DNA of 64,000 bases. It comes from a virus. Taxonomy: Duplodnaviria > Caudoviricetes. Under the pieces are notes generated by a model. The model ran no database searches and was not told the origin of the DNA. It saw nothing but the letters and a program-made list of their open reading frames with translations. The stretch covers positions 32,001-96,000 of the IMG/VR virus record IMGVR_UViG_3300014019_000001; one strand, 5' to 3'. The position numbers and the translations under genes were made by a program. This document shows, piece after piece, positions 9,326-50,678 of the stretch. Numbering within the stretch: position 1 is the first letter of the stretch; each line of letters opens with the position of its first letter.

Positions 9326-9778
9326 TCAATCACTGTGCTTCACCGAACGCACCTCGCCGCCGGTCCATGGGTCGACCTCAATGGTCAGCCGGATCGCGTC
9401 CTCGGCGCTCTTGCCCAGCTTCATCGCCATGTAGGCGCTCTGCTGCCCGGAGCCGATGGCGTAGAAGTCGGCTTTGACCGGTCCTGTGAATGCCCGGCCG
9501 TCGTTCCAGTAGAAGGCAGATCCGTCCGGCTCGACGACCAGCGCCTGAACAAGGTGCTCCTGATCGGCCACAGCGCGCTCCAGGGCGGCGTCATCCGGTA
9601 GACTGTTCAACCAGGCCAGAAAGTTGCTGGGCGCGCCCACGACGCTGCTGGAGACGCCCACAAGGCGGCCGCCGCGCAGGCGAAAGACCTTGGTCTTGTT
9701 CCCGATGGGATGCTTGTCGCCGGAATAGGCCCGGCTGTCACCTGCGAGGATGCCGGCGCGATAGGCGATTGTCGTCAT
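9326..9778 (-). CDS. Ntn-hydrolase, HslV/proteasome-beta-like peptidase
   Basis: Starts MTTIAY..LAGDS; K; AIGSG; D.WTGG. Confidence 0.75.
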   Translation of the reverse strand: MTTIAYRAGILAGDSRAYSGDKHPIGNKTKVFRLRGGRLVGVSSSVVGAPSNFLAWLNSLPDDAALERAVADQEHLVQALVVEPDGSAFYWNDGRAFTGPVKADFYAIGSGQQSAYMAMKLGKSAEDAIRLTIEVDPWTGGEVRSVKHSD

Positions 9779-10116
9779 GCAAGATCGCCCAGAATGCGCT
9801 TCGGCTGCATGATCGCCCGGTTGAGGCGATAGAAGGCGTCCTCGACGTGCCGGCGCGCGATCTGCACGGAAGCTTGGTCGATCTCCTGGCTGTCCCGGTT
9901 GCGAACGTGCTCATCGACGCGGCGCAGAACCTTTTCCTCCAGGATCTTGTTCTCGTTCACCATGTCGATCTTCCACTGCTCGACGGTCTTGGCGTAGCCG
10001 GCGACGGGCAGGCCGGAATGACCGGGAATAGGCGAGGGCGCCTTCTGGTCGTCAAAGAGGGGAAGTTGATGCGTGTCGGCAACCTCGGCGGCACGCTGCT
10101 GCTCGGTTCGGTCCAT
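9775..10116 (-). CDS. Acb2-like anti-CBASS nucleotide sponge
   Basis: VAGY...IDMVNENK...IARRHVEDAFYRLNRAIMQP matches the Acb2 pattern (GY..ID.MN..K...RAIAQP); start trimmed so it does not overlap the tRNA. Confidence 0.7.
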   Translation of the reverse strand: MDRTEQQRAAEVADTHQLPLFDDQKAPSPIPGHSGLPVAGYAKTVEQWKIDMVNENKILEEKVLRRVDEHVRNRDSQEIDQASVQIARRHVEDAFYRLNRAIMQPKRILGDLA

Positions 10117-10142
10117 TCGATGATCCTGTGGGGTAGGGGAGT

Positions 10143-10218
10143 TGGCTGAGGAGGCTGGGCTCGAACCAGCGACAGGGCGATTAACAGTCGCCAGCTCTAC
10201 CATCTGAGCTACTCCCCA
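10143..10218 (-). tRNA. tRNA-Asn(GTT)
   Basis: TGGGGAGTAGCTCAGATGGTAGAGC..GGCGA CT GTT AA TCGCC..GGTTCGAGCC..GCCA; 76-nt cloverleaf. Confidence 0.95.
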
Positions 10219-10222
10219 ACGT

Positions 10223-10299
<77 letters not shown>

Positions 10300-10551
10300 T
10301 TGATGGGAAGATCCTAAGTAAGTGATTACCTACAGTCAAGCGCGATTTAGCGAAAAGGCTATTTGGCTATAGAGCGCTATCGCTAGGAGAGGTGGCTACA
10401 GGCAGTTCCGGATCTGTGGGGCCGGGGTAGACGCAACTTAGGTCAAGGTCCATCTCGTCGGGACACAGAGGAGAGGTGGCTAGGATGCCGGGGAGTTGGT
10501 GAGCGATGGAGGTATCCCCTTGAAATCACACGCAAATCTCTAAGACTTCGC

Positions 10552-10580
10552 TTGCACTACTCGCAGCAAACGTCTAATGT
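10552..10580 (+). promoter_or_regulatory. Sigma70-type promoter of the GG-free gene
   Basis: TTGCAC (10552-57), 17-nt spacer, TAATGT (10575-80). Confidence 0.65.
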
Positions 10581-10720
10581 GTATTCATCAACAGAGAGCA
10601 AGTAGCTCAGTTGATTTGAAGCAAGCGCTTCAAGCTCTTTGACATTCGAATAGATGACATGCGACGCATCCCGATTGAGCGCGTTCATGTCACAGAAAGC
10701 TAATATTTCATCTTCAATAG

Positions 10721-10738
10721 TAAGTCATTACTGACTTA
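10721..10738. promoter_or_regulatory. 18-bp palindromic operator TAAGTCATTACTGACTTA
   Basis: Member of the dispersed TAAGTMA-N4-TKACTTA family; lies just upstream of the GAGAGAG RBS. Confidence 0.7.
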
Positions 10739-10760
10739 CACAACATGAGAGAGAACGAAC

Positions 10761-11336
10761 ATGACTGACAATAACAACGTATTCTCGACCGCTCTTAACG
10801 CTCGCGTTGACGCTGCTGTCAAAGCTGACAAGATGAGCGAGAGCAACCGTGAGAAGCTTCGCAACTTCGCGAAAGAGTGCAACAAGTCTGAAAAGCTCGT
10901 CGCTTTCTTGAGCGCGTGCGCTGTTGACGTGCGCGTATTTGAAAACGACGTCTACGAGATCGACAAGCTGCGCAATCTGTCGCGCTTCGCAGTCGATGAA
11001 ATCGCAGCGCGCGATTTCAACGAAATGAACAGATGCGTGTTCCTGACAGCGCTCGCTTTCGAACGCGCTGATATCGCGTTCACGAGAGAAGACGCGACAC
11101 ACGCTTGCAGCGCGCATTACAAAATCAAAGACGCGAAAAAGCGCGCGCTGACTTCGCAGAACGCAAAGACTGTCGCTGACAGCACAGTCGCATCGCAGCA
11201 TAGAAGCTCGCTCAAAGCGCTTGAAGCGCTGAACGTGCTTCGCAGCGTCAACAAGAGCGAGTTTCGCATGAACCTGCAAAGCGATGCGACGATTAAGCTC
11301 GCAGCGAAATTCAATATCGACCTGACGGCTAAGTAA
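10761..11336 (+). CDS. Gly/Pro/Trp-free protein, paralog of 12351..13136; putative immediate-early DNA-binding regulator
   Basis: 191-aa ORF with promoter and RBS; shares DVYEIDKL/NVYAADKL, AF..A...FT.E.A and TV...T...Q..S...AL with the paralog. Confidence 0.8.
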   Translation: MTDNNNVFSTALNARVDAAVKADKMSESNREKLRNFAKECNKSEKLVAFLSACAVDVRVFENDVYEIDKLRNLSRFAVDEIAARDFNEMNRCVFLTALAFERADIAFTREDATHACSAHYKIKDAKKRALTSQNAKTVADSTVASQHRSSLKALEALNVLRSVNKSEFRMNLQSDATIKLAAKFNIDLTAK

Positions 11337-11422
11337 GCACTTACTGCTAGAGCGCTAGAAATAGCGCTCTAGCTATTTCGCTAAATAGCCCAACCGGGCA
11401 TCCCGCGCCCCTGGAGCCACCC

Positions 11423-11584
11423 ATGAACCTCCTCCTGATCGCCGTTGGCGTGCTCTTTGCCGTCATCCGCGCAGCCGCCTGCTATCTGGACCCTCATCCG
11501 GGCAACCAGTTCAACCTCATCATGAGCCTGCTCCTTGCCGGCGTCCTCATCGTCGGCAGCCTGGAACAGCCGGACTATGTATGA
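11423..11584 (+). CDS. Small membrane protein
   Basis: Manual reading MNLLLIAVGVLFAVIR...; GGAG RBS; two hydrophobic stretches. Confidence 0.45.
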   Translation: MNLLLIAVGVLFAVIRAAACYLDPHPGNQFNLIMSLLLAGVLIVGSLEQPDYV

Positions 11585-11771
11585 GCTGCTCCTGATCACC
11601 ATCGTCAGCGCGTCCAGCGCTGGCGCCTCCGCCATCGAGACCCAGGCGATCGAGACCTACGATACCGCCGACGCCTGCCTCGATGCCGTCAGCCAGATGC
11701 CGATCCGGAAGATCCAGCTCCCGACCGGACAGACCCTCACCCTGAAACTCGCCTGCGAGAAACGACCATGA
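11577..11771 (+). CDS. Small secreted protein
   Basis: Signal-like MYELLLITIVS, two Cys; start trimmed. Confidence 0.5.
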   Translation: MYELLLITIVSASSAGASAIETQAIETYDTADACLDAVSQMPIRKIQLPTGQTLTLKLACEKRP

Positions 11772-11953
11772 GCAAGCACCAGCCCGTGCAGGACGACACC
11801 TGCCGCCACAAATTCAAACCGTCGACACTGGCAGCCAGACAGGCTGCCTACGACACCCTGGACGAGGATTGGCTCGATGACGTCGAGCACCTGGCGTTGC
11901 CGCACTATCGCTTCGGCGATGGCGTGCGCCACTACCTGGAAGGAATCGAATAG
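11768..11953 (+). CDS. Hypothetical protein
   Basis: ATGA overlap with the upstream ORF. Confidence 0.5.
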   Translation: MSKHQPVQDDTCRHKFKPSTLAARQAAYDTLDEDWLDDVEHLALPHYRFGDGVRHYLEGIE

Positions 11954-11999
11954 CCCCAAGGCGCCCTACCAAGGGCGCCAGCGGGAGCCGCCCGCCGAC

Positions 12000-12285
12000 C
12001 CATGGAAGCCCACGGAGCCCCGTGGAGAGCGTTTCCCATGGTCGCATGAGCGCTGGCCCGTCCGAAGGGCCAAACGCGCGTCCTGGGCCGCCTGTGCCAA
12101 TATGCGCCCCATGGGGTGCCATGGCGAAAGCCCGAAATCAGGAAATAGCGAAATCGGGAAAGGAATACGAAGGTGCTGGTCCTACGGCCGACCAGCACCG
12201 GATCCCATGGAGCCCACCGGTTCCCCTAAGCCGCTCCGCCTGAATTCGCCCTAGGCTCACAATCGCCGCCCATGGAAACCCATGG
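12000..12285. repeat. Phased CCRYGG array
   Basis: Sites start at 12000, 12010, 12020, 12036, 12109, 12119, 12205, 12270, 12280. Confidence 0.75.
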
Positions 12286-12302
12286 GCCGTAACCCGCCAC
12301 GA

Positions 12303-12330
12303 AGAAGGGCAGCCCGTAGACTGCCCTCTC
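12303..12330. terminator. Hairpin terminator between converging units
   Basis: AGGGCAG-cccgtaga-CTGCCCT stem downstream of the 12351 stop. Confidence 0.55.
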
Positions 12331-12350
12331 GTTCTCTCTGGACTTGTGCC

Positions 12351-13136
12351 TTACGCCGCCAGCACCTCCTGGAGGCGCTTGGTCTGCGGCGTGTCGGTCA
12401 GCTCGTAGACGGGCGCGCGGAACGTGCCGGAGTTCTTGACGATGCCCATCGTCTGGAGAGCCGTCATGGTCGAGGACGTCTGCGTCGACATGGTGCCCGG
12501 ATCGACGGTGTGGCGGATGAGGATCTTCTGCATGGCGGCGCTGACCTTCACCTTGTCGCAGGCTGCAGCCTTCGCCATCTCCCCGGTGAACTTCTCGCCG
12601 GCGGCGCGGAAGGCGAAGAGGCTCTTGCAGATGGCGATGTTGATCTTGTTGGTCAGGGCGCCGTCCCGGAGACCCTTCACCAGGTCAGCGAGCTTGTCCG
12701 CCGCGTAGACGTTGAAGCGGCTGCCTTCCGAGACGGACCGGTTGATGAAGTCGGGCTCGACCTGGGCGGCGATGAGGATTGCCGCTGCGGAGGGCAGGGT
12801 GAGCTTGGCGCGCGTCTTGTCCAGGCTCTTGTGGATCCGCTCGTTGTTCGGGTTCTTGGTCTTCTCGTAGGTCGCCCGGTCGTCGAAGCCCTTGGCGACC
12901 TTCTGCGCCATTGCCAGCTTCTGCTCGTCCGTGTAGCTGTCAGCGATCTGGGGCAGGGTGAGCTCGACAGCGCCGTCGCCGGCCGGGCCGGGGTCAGACT
13001 GGACCGTTTCCGAGACTACGACAGTATTGCCGTCGCCCGTTTCGAGACCGGCGAGAATAGCAACTTCGTGATCCGTGATGACTTCCTCGGATACGACGGT
13101 CGCCTGTGCCTTCTTTGCGTTGTTGTTCTTAGCCAT
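12351..13136 (-). CDS. Conserved hypothetical protein, probable C-terminal winged helix; paralog of the GG-free gene
   Basis: Start trimmed to MAKNN (AGGA RBS); motif sharing with 10761..11336. Confidence 0.8.
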   Translation of the reverse strand: MAKNNNAKKAQATVVSEEVITDHEVAILAGLETGDGNTVVVSETVQSDPGPAGDGAVELTLPQIADSYTDEQKLAMAQKVAKGFDDRATYEKTKNPNNERIHKSLDKTRAKLTLPSAAAILIAAQVEPDFINRSVSEGSRFNVYAADKLADLVKGLRDGALTNKINIAICKSLFAFRAAGEKFTGEMAKAAACDKVKVSAAMQKILIRHTVDPGTMSTQTSSTMTALQTMGIVKNSGTFRAPVYELTDTPQTKRLQEVLAA

Positions 13137-13267
13137 TTCGTGTTTCCTTCTCTCTCGTTTTCCTCTCAAGCGCTTCATTGCTCTTGATGATTACAAGATA
13201 GAACGTGTCTCTATGGGTGTCGGCTGGGAAGAACAGGCATGTTGCATGGTAATACAGGACCGTTACT

Positions 13268-13575
13268 CCATGGGACCGGAAGGTTCTCCACGGAGCCCCA
13301 CGGAACGCCATGGCTGACCGTGGAGAGGGGAGGGCGAGCCATGGGCCGGGAAGATGATTTGTCCCTAAGGAGACGGCGCGCGTTTTACGAGCCGGAGGAG
13401 TGCCATTTTAGTTTTCCCTTAATTCGCGTCTCCATACTATGTATATATACCCTTTAAAGACGTAATAACTTACTTAGTATGGAAGAGGCGAGGGAAGCGT
13501 CTCCGGCTCGTGGGTTGGTAGGCGATTCCGTGGGTGGATGGGTTTCCGGCCGTGGAAGTCCGTGGTGAACCTTGG
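13268..13575. repeat. Phased CCRYGG arrays flanking copy 2 of the AT-cored inverted repeat (13387-13511)
   Basis: Sites at 13268, 13288, 13298, 13308, 13318, 13339, 13528, 13550, 13560 and CCTTGG at 13570. Confidence 0.75.
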
Positions 13576-14618
13576 CGCGGCCACCTCACCACCGCTTTTC
13601 GATCGCCCTTCAATCTTCCTAGGCTCTTCGCTTTCTTCACCCTCTACGCGTTCACGCTGTCGCTCACTCTAGCCTCAGTCTCCCTATAGCTCTCCTAGGC
13701 TACGCTCCTTTCTACAGTCGCACGTTCACCTCATACGCACCTGGTCTTCTCCGGCTCGTGCTTCTTCTGGTGATCGCCCTTTCGCTCATTCGGGAAATAG
13801 CTATTTCGTGTGATCGCTATTGCGCTACGCCAGTGTGTTGCCAGTTGCTGCGTCTCCTGTGTGCTGTTTCGCTCAGGGTTGATCACCTGATAGCGTCCAT
13901 GACTCTTCTGCGTGTCGTTGCTGCTCTCGGGCGTGTTTGCTTGCTGGTGAGCTTCTATGCGTCTTTGAGGGTTTCGCCTGTTCATGGCTGTAGCGGTTTA
14001 CCGAAATCGCTTTTTCGCTATTTACGGATTTGGCTGCAAACCTGGTGCTAAGCTAGGGCTAAGGATCCTCTTATTCCGGATAAGAAGGTTGGCGGCCGGG
14101 CCTAGGTTCATTTCGATGGCGAAACGGTATGGAGCCATGGGATTGAGCGCCCGTGGAAGGCCGTGGAGTTGACGGCGCGCAAAGGAAAGGGCAGAGCGCG
14201 GAGAAAGGATAAGCCGCGACATCTGCCCTTTGGTAGGTGCCCAAGCACCCGGCGAGCGATAGTTTGCAGACTACCGCCGCCCTTCCTTTGCCTGACCTGC
14301 CGGGGGAGAAACTCCGGCATTCAGTGCTGTCGGTGTTATTCCACTAGGAGGGCGCATGAATCCCACCTGCTTGCACGACCGCCGACTGCGCGCTAGTAAC
14401 CGCTTACTTAGTTATAGCGGCCGGAGAGAGGCTTGCGCCTATTCTTCGACGGGCTCTGCCTGGTAGTCCTCGAAGAAGTTCTCAACGCCGAGGCGTTTTG
14501 CCTCTGCCTGTGCCTCGGTGATTCCGGCCGATGGTGTTCCGGTCCAGGTGAAGATGTGGACGCGACGCTTGGCCGGTGCGCTGTAGGCGGTGATCTTGTG
14601 GCGCATTGTCATTCCCCT

Positions 14619-31691: not shown

Positions 31692-33122
31692 TCAGGCTGC
31701 TTCAGGAAGCTCTGCCACCTCCTTGTGCGTTGCCAACATTGCCTGGTGGGCGCGCTCGCGCACGTCGGCGAAGCTGGTGAGCTGGCTCATGCCGTCGCTG
31801 TAGACGACCTTCAGGAGGTTCTTGAGCTTCTCGTCCGGCCGAGCTTCGCTCTCCTTGATCGCAATGAGCCCGTGGCCGGTGTCGATGACGATCTGCCGCC
31901 CCGCCTTGGACGTCTTGGCGGGATCGGTCGCAGGCTTCTTCTGCAGGTCCGCCCAGCCGGCGCCGGTATCAATCGCGTTCGCCTTCATCGCGAAGTTGAG
32001 GTCGTTACGCGAATGCCCCTGGAGCAGCCCGCCGCCCATGCCAAAGGCGATATTGTCGATGGACCAGCGATTTTCGATCAGCGCGCGGCACAGCCGGCTG
32101 ATGGAGTTGAGGTTCATTCCGTCACCCTGGATGACGCCGATCTTCTCGTGGAGCACCTTGAAGCCCTTCGAGTTGGTGGTGCCGCCGAACTTGTTCCAGA
32201 GCGTTTCGAGCACCTTGATGGGCGTCGTCACCGGGTCGCCGGAGTCTGGCCGGATGATCAGCTTGCCGTCGATGTTCTGGATCTTCTCCTTCAGGCTGCT
32301 GCCGTAGATGTTCTCCAGGGCGTTGAAGAGGTCGTAGCTGTCAGAGACGACCGAGAAGAGACCGTCGCCGAACTTGTCGAGCATGTTGCTGTAGGCATCG
32401 GTCTCGTGCTGGCGGCCCCATGCAGTCATCGTGGAGTGCTCGGATGCGGGGATCGAGAAGCCGGCGCACCCGTCCTTCTCCTGGTAGACCCGGCGAACGG
32501 CGAGAAGCGCCTCAAGGGTGTCGGTGCCCTGGAAGTTCACCAGATGCGCCATGCCACCGATGCCGGCAGATTCACCGGACGACACGCCGCGCCCGCCGAA
32601 GTCGTGCAGCTTGAAGGCGATATCCGGAGCGTCAGAGGTCTTGAGAGCGGTGTCGTAGATGATCACCTTGGTCACGAAGGACAGCGTTGCGACCGAGGTG
32701 GCATACCAGACAGCGCGCAGAAGGGCCGTTTCGATGAAGCTCGTCAGCCACGGAACCTCCGGGTCGGTGTTGCGCACCTGGACCAGCGGCGTGCCGCGCT
32801 CGACGATGGAACCTTCGGGAAGCGCCTCGATCTCCAGCGGCAGGTAGCCGTTGTGATGCTTCCAGATGTGCAGCCAGCCGTCGCGATTGAAGGGCAACCC
32901 GTGCTTTTCGAGGAGTTCCCCGGCTTCATCGATGTCGCTCAAGGTGATCGGCTTCATCAGGTAGTCCTGAATGAACGCCTGGATGCCGAAGAACAGCACC
33001 TTGCCGTCGACGGCCGCGTTCCCACGCGCCTCGATGTAGGAGGACACGAACTTCGTGCCTTCCGGGTATTGCAGGAAGTGGGAGTGCTTATAGCTGTCAC
33101 TCGCCAGGATGATGTTGACCAT
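31692..33122 (-). CDS. nadV: Nicotinamide phosphoribosyltransferase (NAMPT)
   Basis: SDSYKHSH, LHDFGGRG, ASEHS, SVVSDSYD, IRPDSGDP, IQGDG. Confidence 0.95.
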   Translation of the reverse strand: MVNIILASDSYKHSHFLQYPEGTKFVSSYIEARGNAAVDGKVLFFGIQAFIQDYLMKPITLSDIDEAGELLEKHGLPFNRDGWLHIWKHHNGYLPLEIEALPEGSIVERGTPLVQVRNTDPEVPWLTSFIETALLRAVWYATSVATLSFVTKVIIYDTALKTSDAPDIAFKLHDFGGRGVSSGESAGIGGMAHLVNFQGTDTLEALLAVRRVYQEKDGCAGFSIPASEHSTMTAWGRQHETDAYSNMLDKFGDGLFSVVSDSYDLFNALENIYGSSLKEKIQNIDGKLIIRPDSGDPVTTPIKVLETLWNKFGGTTNSKGFKVLHEKIGVIQGDGMNLNSISRLCRALIENRWSIDNIAFGMGGGLLQGHSRNDLNFAMKANAIDTGAGWADLQKKPATDPAKTSKAGRQIVIDTGHGLIAIKESEARPDEKLKNLLKVVYSDGMSQLTSFADVRERAHQAMLATHKEVAELPEAA

Positions 33123-47977: not shown

Positions 47978-48095
47978 CTTTCTCTCTCTTCCTTTCGTGA
48001 GCGCTCTAAGAACTAAGCGCTTACTTATGTTGCTATAGCAGACGAGAAGAGGGTTGCTCACGGAATCTCGAGGCTCTTGATTCCGTGAGCGAGCG

Positions 48096-49670: not shown

Positions 49671-50678
49671 CTACTTCGAGACCGGGGCTTTGATCGCTGC
49701 GGCGGGGTGGTAATCGATCAACTCCACGTCATCGACGCCGACATCGAAGATGCTGCCGTCGTGATGGAGCATGACCTGCGGCAGCTCGACGGGCTGACGG
49801 GTGAGCTGCTCCTTCGCCTGCTCAACGTGGTTGGCGTAGAGGTGCAGGTCGCCGAAGGTGTGAACGAACTCGCCCGGCTCCAGACCGACCTCGTGTGCAA
49901 CCAGCATCGTCAGCAGCGCGTAGGACGCGATATTGAAGGGAACGCCGAGGAACCAATCAGCGCTGCGCTGATAGAGCTGGCAATTCAGCTTGCCGTTGGC
50001 GACGTGGAACTGGAACATGGTGTGACACGGCGGCAAGGCCATGCTGTCGACCTCGACCGGGTTCCAGGCGCTAACAATGTGCCTGCGGCCGTAGGGGTCT
50101 CTCTTGAGCCCTTCGATCACGTTCTTGAGCTGGTCGATGTGAACCGGAACGTGTTCCGAGGCGCCAGACGTGTTATCGTAGACGACCTTCTTCGCACCGA
50201 TCCAGTCGCGCCACTGCTTGCCGTAGACCGGGCCGAGATCGCCGTTCTCGTCAGCCCATTCGTCCCAGATCGAGACGTTGTGATCTTTCAGGAACTTGAT
50301 GTTGGTGTCGCCGCGCAGAAACCAGAGCAACTCGACCAGGATCGAGTGGAAGTGGACCTTCTTGGTCGTCAGCAGCGGGAAGCCTTCCGACAGATCGAAC
50401 CGGAGCTGCTCGCCGAAGAGACCGTAGGTGCCGCCGTTGCGGCCCTCGCGATAGACGCCCTTGTCGATCAGCTTGCGCAGGACGCGCAGATACTGGTGAT
50501 CGGCCATGTTGCCGATGAGACGCAGGTTCTGTTCGCTGTAGATATGGAGAGCGCCCCGGTCATCCTCAACCACGTAGCGCGTTTTGTTATCCAGCTTGTC
50601 GAAGACAGAAACGATCGTCCCGTCAAAGCTGTAATCGCCGGTGACTTTCGTCACAGCATCGAGATCCGAAAAGGGCAA
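49671..50678 (-). CDS. thyA: Thymidylate synthase with an N-terminal DfrB-like SH3 extension
   Basis: [38 protein letters not shown]. Confidence 0.95.

Follow-up and report, generated by a model that had tools for sequence, protein, structure and literature searches.

The pre-early or leading-end DNA of T5- and T7-type phages is free of restriction sites and is expressed first. The paralogous RNA polymerases of phiKZ and N4 act in two stages, an early set that is packaged in the virion being followed by a later one. Opposing full-length and truncated DNA-binding isoforms are made from single genes in the case of the Tn5 transposase and its inhibitor and of papillomavirus E2 and E2-TR. P1 C1 and gp71 of mycobacteriophage L5, with its 'stoperators', are prophage repressors that act at many operators. 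Here we describe a pair of paralogous genes, one of them written without the dinucleotide GG, in a 64,000-nt stretch of viral DNA (hereafter the window) that comprises positions 32,001 to 96,000 of virus record IMGVR_UViG_3300014019_000001 (Duplodnaviria; Caudoviricetes; 116,399 bp, 60% GC). An earlier note, made from the letters of the window, had proposed that the two genes form a two-stage pair, consisting of a starter copy and a later copy or antagonist, and that they probably encode winged-helix DNA-binding proteins. Below we call the GG-free gene the island copy and its paralog the normal copy or the twin; unless stated otherwise, positions are those of the window.

The source genome belongs to the RHEph10/pLM21S1 group of rhizobial phage-plasmids. 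Elements of this type are ~110–120 kb long, carry a RepC-type replicon and ParA and ParB genes, and have no integrase. They are hosted as plasmids by Shinella, Sinorhizobium, Rhizobium and Methylobacterium, and the same elements also occur as phages. Nearly all genes of the 116-kb genome are carried on one strand.

Results

The island copy (10761–11336, + strand) encodes a protein of 191 amino acids (aa) with no Gly, Pro or Trp, which consists of the core only and lacks an N-terminal tail. The normal copy lies in an open reading frame (ORF) spanning 12351–13178 on the – strand, whose likeliest start is the ATG at 13136. This start yields a protein of 261 aa (12351–13136), matching recorded protein P0001, in which a basic N-terminal peptide and an acidic disordered linker are followed by a helical domain and a winged helix. 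The two genes are convergent, with 1,014 bp from stop codon to stop codon, and the arrangement described in the earlier note, a GG-free gene faced by a normal-composition paralog 1 kb away, was thus found as described.

The GG-free, CC-poor island (10513–11326) contained no GG and four CC. In comparison, 400-nt segments of the genome hold 56 ± 8 GG or CC, and the 786 nt of the twin, which had been noted as normal in composition, contain 56 GG and 71 CC. The island is the longest GG-free run in the window as well as in the whole 116-kb genome, and the only such stretch there. It starts 40 nt upstream of the –35 hexamer of the island promoter and stops 10 nt before the stop codon, and so spans the promoter, the leader and nearly the whole coding sequence. 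The leader, the ribosome-binding site and the terminator of the island unit are likewise free of GG and CC, the ribosome-binding site being GAGAGAG, a purine run without GG, compared to GAAGGA in the twin.

The earlier note had seen Gly and Pro positions of the normal copy replaced by Asp, Arg, Ser or Asn in the island copy. This was borne out over 20 island copies, which have Asn, Asp, Ala, Ser, Arg, Lys or His wherever Gly or Pro fills a column in 60% or more of the normal copies. Of these 20 copies, 13 have Asn in place of the Gly that is invariant in the normal family; Asn and Asp are the residues that best tolerate the turn geometry at Gly positions. The pair also serves as the internal control that it had been taken for, with one member of the same fold family containing ~7% Gly and the other lacking it entirely. 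Since a normally written twin exists, neither the fold nor the function can account for the lack of Gly, Pro and Trp, which is imposed at the level of the nucleic acid.

The avoidance is strand-biased. The coding strands of 28 island copies (~16.7 kb; the decayed copy of locus L010 was omitted from this count) contained 6 GG and 63 CC, compared to 7.0 GG and 7.15 CC per 100 nt in ordinary genes of this genome. Both dinucleotides are depleted more than 10-fold, and GG on the coding strand is avoided ~10 times more strictly than CC; the island proteins contain an occasional Pro and almost never a Gly. This indicates that the reader of the dinucleotide is most sensitive to GG on the sense strand, and hence in the transcript, or, what amounts to the same, to CC on the template strand. 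The asymmetry is unlike the prediction for a symmetric reader of double-stranded DNA, such as a restriction enzyme or recognition of a CRISPR protospacer-adjacent motif. In two relatives, the second copy departs from the rule while the protein is still nearly devoid of Gly and Pro, with 2 GG and 28 CC in the copy of L022 (7121–7750 of that locus) and 17 GG and 49 CC in the copy of L010 (1937–2638). Taken together, these two copies would order the decay of the rule, CC returning first (L022) and GG later (L010).

We next give the evidence that the two genes are related. BLASTP aligned the two proteins with 28% identity across 107 residues (E 2e-6), and the three blocks that had been aligned by eye all fall within that one alignment. 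Profile-profile comparison, which the earlier note had named as the way to check the relationship, was significant: hhalign of the island family (5 sequences) against the normal family (55 sequences) gave a probability of 92.4% and an E of 5.3e-7 over 131 columns. The hidden Markov model (HMM) of the normal family matched the island ORFs of other relatives with E of 1e-33 to 1e-9, and a protein language-model search returned the same 747-member cluster as nearest to both proteins, with scores of 0.92 and 0.94. BLASTP, profile-profile comparison, the family HMM and the tree described below agree that the two genes are true paralogs.

Among 28 related viral loci compared for the presence of the island, nearly all have a GG/CC-free island downstream of the normal copy. 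These homologous islands are 650–1700 bp long, and each holds an ORF of 180–290 aa without Gly, Pro or Trp; in a relative that seemingly had no island, it is located 6 kb away. The pair is present in 29 of the 30 loci with enough DNA, the exception being one half-length fragment. A maximum-likelihood tree built from 59 core sequences placed the 30 normal copies in one clade with a Shimodaira–Hasegawa-like approximate likelihood ratio test (SH-aLRT) support of 99, apart from the 29 second copies, which have longer branches than the normal copies. The topology is consistent with derivation of the pair from one old duplication.

Between close relatives, the ratio of nonsynonymous to synonymous substitution rates (dN/dS) of the island copies was 0.03–0.31, with 0.12 for the copy in the window compared to that of L002. 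Synonymous divergence reached 0.7–1.4, and still no GG had been created. By these measures the island copies are under purifying selection, with both copies of the pair kept functional. Length and key residues are kept in 29 island copies, and at nine alignment positions 80% or more of the members of either group have one common residue; these positions include a Y-x-x-x-K, an Asn and the T...Q....AL of the third helix. The normal family has, in addition, a basic N-terminus that is conserved (M-x-K/R-K/R...) and an acidic linker whose length varies, both of which are absent from the island copies; the first ten residues contain 2.7 Lys plus Arg in normal copies compared to 0.7 in island copies.

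Family databases did not name either protein. Neither had a family in Pfam, PHROGs or NCBIfam; hmmscan against Pfam-A was empty for both even at E ≤ 1, and the MarR/ArsR family profiles (PF01047, PF12802, PF01022) were unmatched. Neither protein matched the Pfam RP-C family as a sign of RepC homology, and the RepC-like gene of pLM21S1 is a different gene, located on the opposite side of the replicon. Searching PDB sequences with a profile returned noise only (BRIL fusions, ATP synthase b). A wide profile search gave 361 representatives, and among the best 150 listed all are close members of the normal-copy family, so that this search offered no functional lead.

The AlphaFold model of the normal copy had a predicted local distance difference test score (pLDDT) of 87.8 and a predicted template modelling score (pTM) of 0.79, and was confident from residue 60 onward. 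Residues 1–60, a basic peptide followed by an acidic stretch, were disordered in the model. Residues ~150–261 form a predicted winged helix, with helices at 185–192, 200–205 and 213–229 and strands at 233–235 and 243–246; the three-helix bundle and two-stranded wing that define the winged-helix superfamily are thus both found, in a predicted and not a solved structure. VIA-align matched this model to AF1382 (2qvo) with a Z of 9.3 and 2.1 Å over 78 residues. The next matches were winged helices of MarR, ArsR, ORC/Cdc6, kleisin and TubR, with Z of 7–8; the match to TubR was weak (Foldseek E 0.19, VIA-align Z 7.1). The winged-helix fold proposed in the earlier note is therefore supported for the C-terminal half of the normal copy. 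The helical N-domain of ~90 residues that precedes it had no fold match.

The model of the island copy (pLDDT 88.7) showed the same order of elements and the same list of matches. Both models thus consist of a helical domain and a C-terminal winged helix, the latter as the earlier note would have it; the island model was built from an alignment dominated by normal copies, so that its agreement with the twin is not an independent test. In BFVD, the normal-copy model matched phage proteins of 188 and 194 aa with TM-scores of 0.83 and 0.73 at 19% and 14% identity. These proteins are uncharacterised and of island-type length, and the matches lend some independent support to the predicted fold. The recognition helix of the pair is rich in Ser, Thr and Gln, and the models suggest that both are DNA-binding proteins.

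We then compared the promoters of the two copies by anchoring on their common start box, [C/G]TAATCATC; an initial regular-expression search for AACCC promoters upstream of the normal copies had failed before this anchoring. The sigma70-like promoter of the island copy (10552–10589, +) consists of TTGCAC (10552–10557), 17 nt, TAATGT (10575–10580) and the start box GTATTCATC (10581–10589), and is followed by a leader of ~170 nt. The phage-type promoter of the normal copy (13186–13220, –) consists of ACACCC (13220–13215), 13 nt, CTATCTT (13201–13195) and the start box GTAATCATC (13194–13186), a layout that recurs in L002, L004, L021, L024 and L031. Island copies have CTTGCA-N17/18-TAnnnT in the window, L002 and L004, and TTGCTC or TTGTTC-N16-TAAAGT in three members of a second clade, a fourth, L031, retaining TAAAGT alone. 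Six of the eight aligned normal copies have (A/C/T)A(A/C)CCC or ACCCC, 13 nt and CTATYKT; L016 has ACTTCC and L033 ACGTCC instead. The contrast drawn in the earlier note between a sigma70 promoter for the island copy and a phage-type promoter for the paralog thus holds across relatives when the start boxes are compared. Within several genomes, the leaders of the two paralogs are homologous (local-alignment z against shuffles up to 13.7), and the –35 elements are different.

The phage-type promoter is not peculiar to the normal copy. Many genes of the genome are preceded by an AACCC-type box, 13–14 nt, a CTATAG-like hexamer and an 18-bp palindrome of the TAAGTAA-N4-TTACTTA class. This palindrome class, itself free of GG and CC, occurs just 3' of the –10 at ~40 phage promoters (for example at 48010, 40108 and 58721). 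One such palindrome, TAAGTCA-N4-TGACTTA (10721–10738, +, read from the sequence), stands 22 nt before the start codon of the island copy, and the island genes of relatives are also preceded by this class. The palindromes could serve as an operator or form a hairpin at the 5' end of the RNA. A search of the 10-kb loci for co-variation between the palindromes and the island recognition helix was uninformative, there being too few sites per locus.

The genome encodes one sigma factor resembling the extracytoplasmic function (ECF) family, outside the window (genome 101754–102401, –; Sigma70_r2, E 1.7e-7). A single-subunit RNA polymerase was not detected in the genome, in a search whose control was likewise without signal. 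The ECF-like sigma factor of the phage itself is the most likely reader of the AACCC promoter class. An AACCC box is impossible in a CC-free island, and the recoded unit would therefore necessarily lie outside the regulon of such a factor. The ECF-like sigma gene is part of an operon in which a promoter of the AACCC type precedes the first large gene, with a perfect TTGACA beside a palindrome further upstream, an arrangement that suggests a host-started, self-reinforcing sigma circuit.

CCRYGG words form just two clusters in the 116-kb genome, both with mostly exact 10-bp spacing, and these two flank the normal copy. One is an array of CCATGG, CCACGG and CCGTGG words between the convergent units (12000–12290); the second phased array lies just upstream of the normal-copy promoter (13268–13344). 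CCRYGG arrays were found in about two thirds of the relatives, on either side of the normal copy and, in many cases, immediately ahead of the island. CCRYGG as a universal target was rejected, as the strict pattern is absent in about one third of the relatives and from one whole 110-kb genome; the arrays of the pLM21S1 clade are degenerate (CCNNGG, CCCAAGG).

Further upstream of the normal copy lies an AT-rich element (13440–13490; 25% GC in a genome of 60% GC) with a TAAGTAAG...TTAC palindrome and TATATA. Most relatives have a comparable element ~250–700 nt upstream of the conserved core of the normal copy, and in six the distance is ~1.1–1.4 kb. The element is part of a gene-free stretch of ~1.25 kb (13137–14438), which has a counterpart of ~1.2 kb in L040 and L042 and could be a long leader or give rise to non-coding RNAs. 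At its head stands a distal, full-consensus phage-type promoter, GCAAGCC-N11-GCTATA-N2-palindrome (14393–14436, –), and three direct repeats of 30–40 nt occur within it at 13759–13875. A ParA gene with its own small downstream partner lies 4 kb from the normal copy. Judged as a centromere adaptor of the TubR or ParB type, the normal copy has the flanking phased arrays and the basic N-terminal peptide, and there is no adjacent NTPase gene.

Over genome positions 44–104 kb, the GC skew is flat across the structural half and steadily positive from the paralog locus on, with the gene strand the same on both sides. As a marker of an origin the skew was rejected, since it shows an inflection only, without a clear minimum.

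Directly 3' of the island gene is a terminator-like hairpin free of GG and CC (11347–11372, +; 11-bp stem, GAAA loop), again read from the sequence. It is included in the right-hand member of a pair of imperfect inverted repeats of ~29–45 nt that bracket the island unit (10342–10386 and 11345–11390) and contain GCTATAG-like and TAGAGCGCTA motifs. Just beyond the left edge of the island, a conserved GG-rich element (10380–10520) contains GGAGAGGTGGCTA twice, where relatives have GAGGAGGTTAGG...GGAAGGCATCCCC; this element had no Rfam match. Three small ORFs (53, 64 and 61 aa; 11423–11953, +), all normal in composition, follow the island gene, as called on an identical Logan contig and by a codon-usage caller, and family searches with them gave no match. 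An ORF of 43 aa without Gly, Pro or Trp (10557–10688, –), called as a gene on two public contigs, was not counted because it lies antisense within the island leader, and is probably no gene.

Over 9800–14600, Rfam found two tRNAs and nothing else, and a tRNA was the sole match in a nucleotide search against phage DNA. Two genes from the island is an HslV-like peptidase gene (9326–9778, –) that is kept in RHEph10, RHph_N1_15 and pLM21S1, where it is annotated as peptidase S14; the peptidase might act on the regulators. A gene of the thymidylate-synthase family (49671–50654, –; E 2e-111) gave nothing pointing beyond thymidylate synthesis.

Discussion

We favour, at a little short of an even chance, a relay in which the recoded core copy acts first, or in the quiescent plasmid state, and the full-length copy acts after the phage sigma factor. 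The two genes go back to one old duplication of a putative phage-plasmid DNA-binding protein, made up of a helical domain and a C-terminal winged helix, and both copies have stayed functional. One of them has been rewritten as a self-contained unit, with a sigma70-like promoter, a leader, a ribosome-binding site lacking GG, the coding sequence and a terminator hairpin. Given the promoter, the lack of GG and the near-lack of CC in this unit, host RNA polymerase could express it without any phage factor, and a reader of GG/CC would be blind to it. The island copy would then be made by unmodified host machinery at a time, or in a state of the cell, in which phage sequence containing GG or CC is unusable. 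The other copy, of normal composition, with its basic peptide and acidic linker and its position between the CCRYGG arrays, would depend through its AACCC promoter on the phage sigma factor. The recoded core would supply the DNA-binding activity early, and the full-length copy would take over once the phage sigma factor is made.

By its strand bias, the avoidance suggests that the GG/CC reader has the transcript or the template strand as its substrate. Combined with the promoter contrast, the bias narrows the candidates to readers of either of these in a gene whose expression cannot rely on phage factors. A more specific version of the relay, which we regard as doubtful, is that the island gene is a 'safe-mode' copy, the only version expressible while a strand-specific process blocks or destroys sequence with GG on the sense strand, with the twin taking over afterwards. 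Candidates for such a process are a bulky mark on template-strand CC of the virion DNA and a GG-directed RNA nuclease or binder.

Several observations weigh against the relay. The island promoter agrees with the E. coli consensus at 6 of 12 positions and was not flagged by a strict scan for consensus sigma70 promoters. No TGT/DpdA or C5-, N4- or N6-methylase profile matched in the 116-kb genome, in searches that detected their controls and do not exclude other modifying enzymes. L010 has regained GG and CC, so the constraint can be lost. As the island copy is without the tail of its twin, the two proteins are perhaps not interchangeable, which would suit antagonism no less than a starter role. 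The four public runs that contain the stretch are low-depth metagenome contigs, probably DNA, that are silent on expression and on DNA ends, with no RNA run among those listed.

The antagonist reading takes the missing tail as its starting point. The island copy, a DNA-binding core lacking the basic/acidic tail, would be a maintenance (immunity) repressor or a dominant-negative partner made from a constitutive host-type promoter, and the full-length copy would be the lytic effector. The island copy would occupy the DNA sites of the full-length copy or form mixed dimers with it, perhaps acting at the palindromes. We judge this unlikely. In its favour, both copies have the recognition-helix motif in common, the phage family is integrase-free with a plasmid lifestyle, and the island is an autonomous unit with its 18-bp palindrome between promoter and start codon, the same class that follows ~40 phage promoters. 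These palindromes could, however, equally be 5' RNA hairpins, and the co-variation search across relatives did not help to decide. Some members of the normal family are themselves short and without a linker, and the antagonist reading offers no reason for a repressor gene to avoid GG and CC.

A division of labour between the copies appears to us improbable. Here the normal copy would be an origin-binding or centromere-type organiser on the CCRYGG arrays and the AT-rich element, and the island copy an ordinary transcription regulator. Partners of ParA/MinD ATPases typically have a basic N-terminal peptide, and through its own the normal copy would contact a ParA-type ATPase or the replisome. 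The genome's only two CCRYGG clusters do flank this gene and recur in many relatives, as do the AT-rich element and the gene-free stretch of ~1.2 kb; a ParA gene is 4 kb away, and the steady rise of the cumulative GC skew begins at this locus. Yet the arrays are degenerate or, by the strict pattern, absent across a whole clade although the normal copy's recognition helix hardly varies, ParA has a small downstream partner gene of its own, and the plasmid replicon is the RepC gene elsewhere. The weak fold matches to the winged helices of TubR and ORC/Cdc6, which would suit this role, are generic for winged helices. Least credible by far, and in our view very nearly untenable, is that the similarity is due to chance, or that the island ORF is a decaying, non-functional duplicate whose composition is a mutational by-product. 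A pairwise identity of just 28%, the long branches of the island copies and the relaxed rule in one relative could be read in this way, but they have to be set against the profile and HMM evidence for homology, dN/dS values of 0.03–0.31, the conservation of length and key residues in 29 copies, the replacement of Gly by Asn or Asp, and saturated synonymous sites that are still free of GG. Neither the relay, nor the antagonist reading, nor the division of labour explains by itself what reads GG/CC.

The pair provides a natural matched control for the GG/CC rule and, if the 'safe-mode' reading is true, for identifying the blocking process. About 30 diverged phage-plasmids have kept bearing the cost of losing Gly, Pro and Trp. 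An odd amino-acid composition can be the footprint of a rule at the DNA level, and gene finders and homology searches under-detect such genes; a word-based search found 4 relatives of the island copy compared to 55 of its twin. The pair lends itself to coding swaps, promoter swaps and single deletions in cultured rhizobial phages and plasmid carriers.

No relevant paper turned up in literature searches on the avoidance of GG/CC dinucleotides by phages or on the promoters of RHEph10 and pLM21S1. In fold, the predicted C-terminal 100 residues of the pair are like those of MarR/ArsR proteins, AF1382, ORC/Cdc6, kleisin and TubR, with three helices and a beta-hairpin wing. The pair differs from these winged-helix proteins in having no Pfam, PHROG or NCBIfam membership and in its extra, unmatched helical N-domain. 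The island resembles the leading-end DNA of T5 and T7 in being a small unit, apparently read by host polymerase, that avoids a short word which the bulk of the genome does not avoid. This likeness is one of composition and promoter, not of an established position at a DNA end. Unlike in T5 and T7, the avoidance extends to a whole dinucleotide, which costs the protein three amino acids; it is also strand-biased, and a normally written twin is present.

As in phiKZ and N4, the same biochemical function would be encoded twice for two expression regimes; in contrast to those RNA polymerases, the proteins here are small, putatively DNA-binding, and divided by promoter type and nucleotide 'dialect'. 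Like the Tn5 and E2 pairs, one form has an effector-like tail and the other is the binding core alone, whereas here the two forms are products of two diverged genes (~25% identity), each under purifying selection. With P1 C1 and L5 gp71 the locus has in common an integrase-less phage-plasmid setting and one short palindrome class 3' of dozens of promoters, including the regulator's own, but there is no sequence similarity to these repressors, and the palindromes may act as RNA hairpins. Each of these known systems, and motif avoidance by phages in general, matches one aspect of the locus; in none of them is a gene rewritten free of a dinucleotide, and poorer by three amino acids, paired with a normally written twin.

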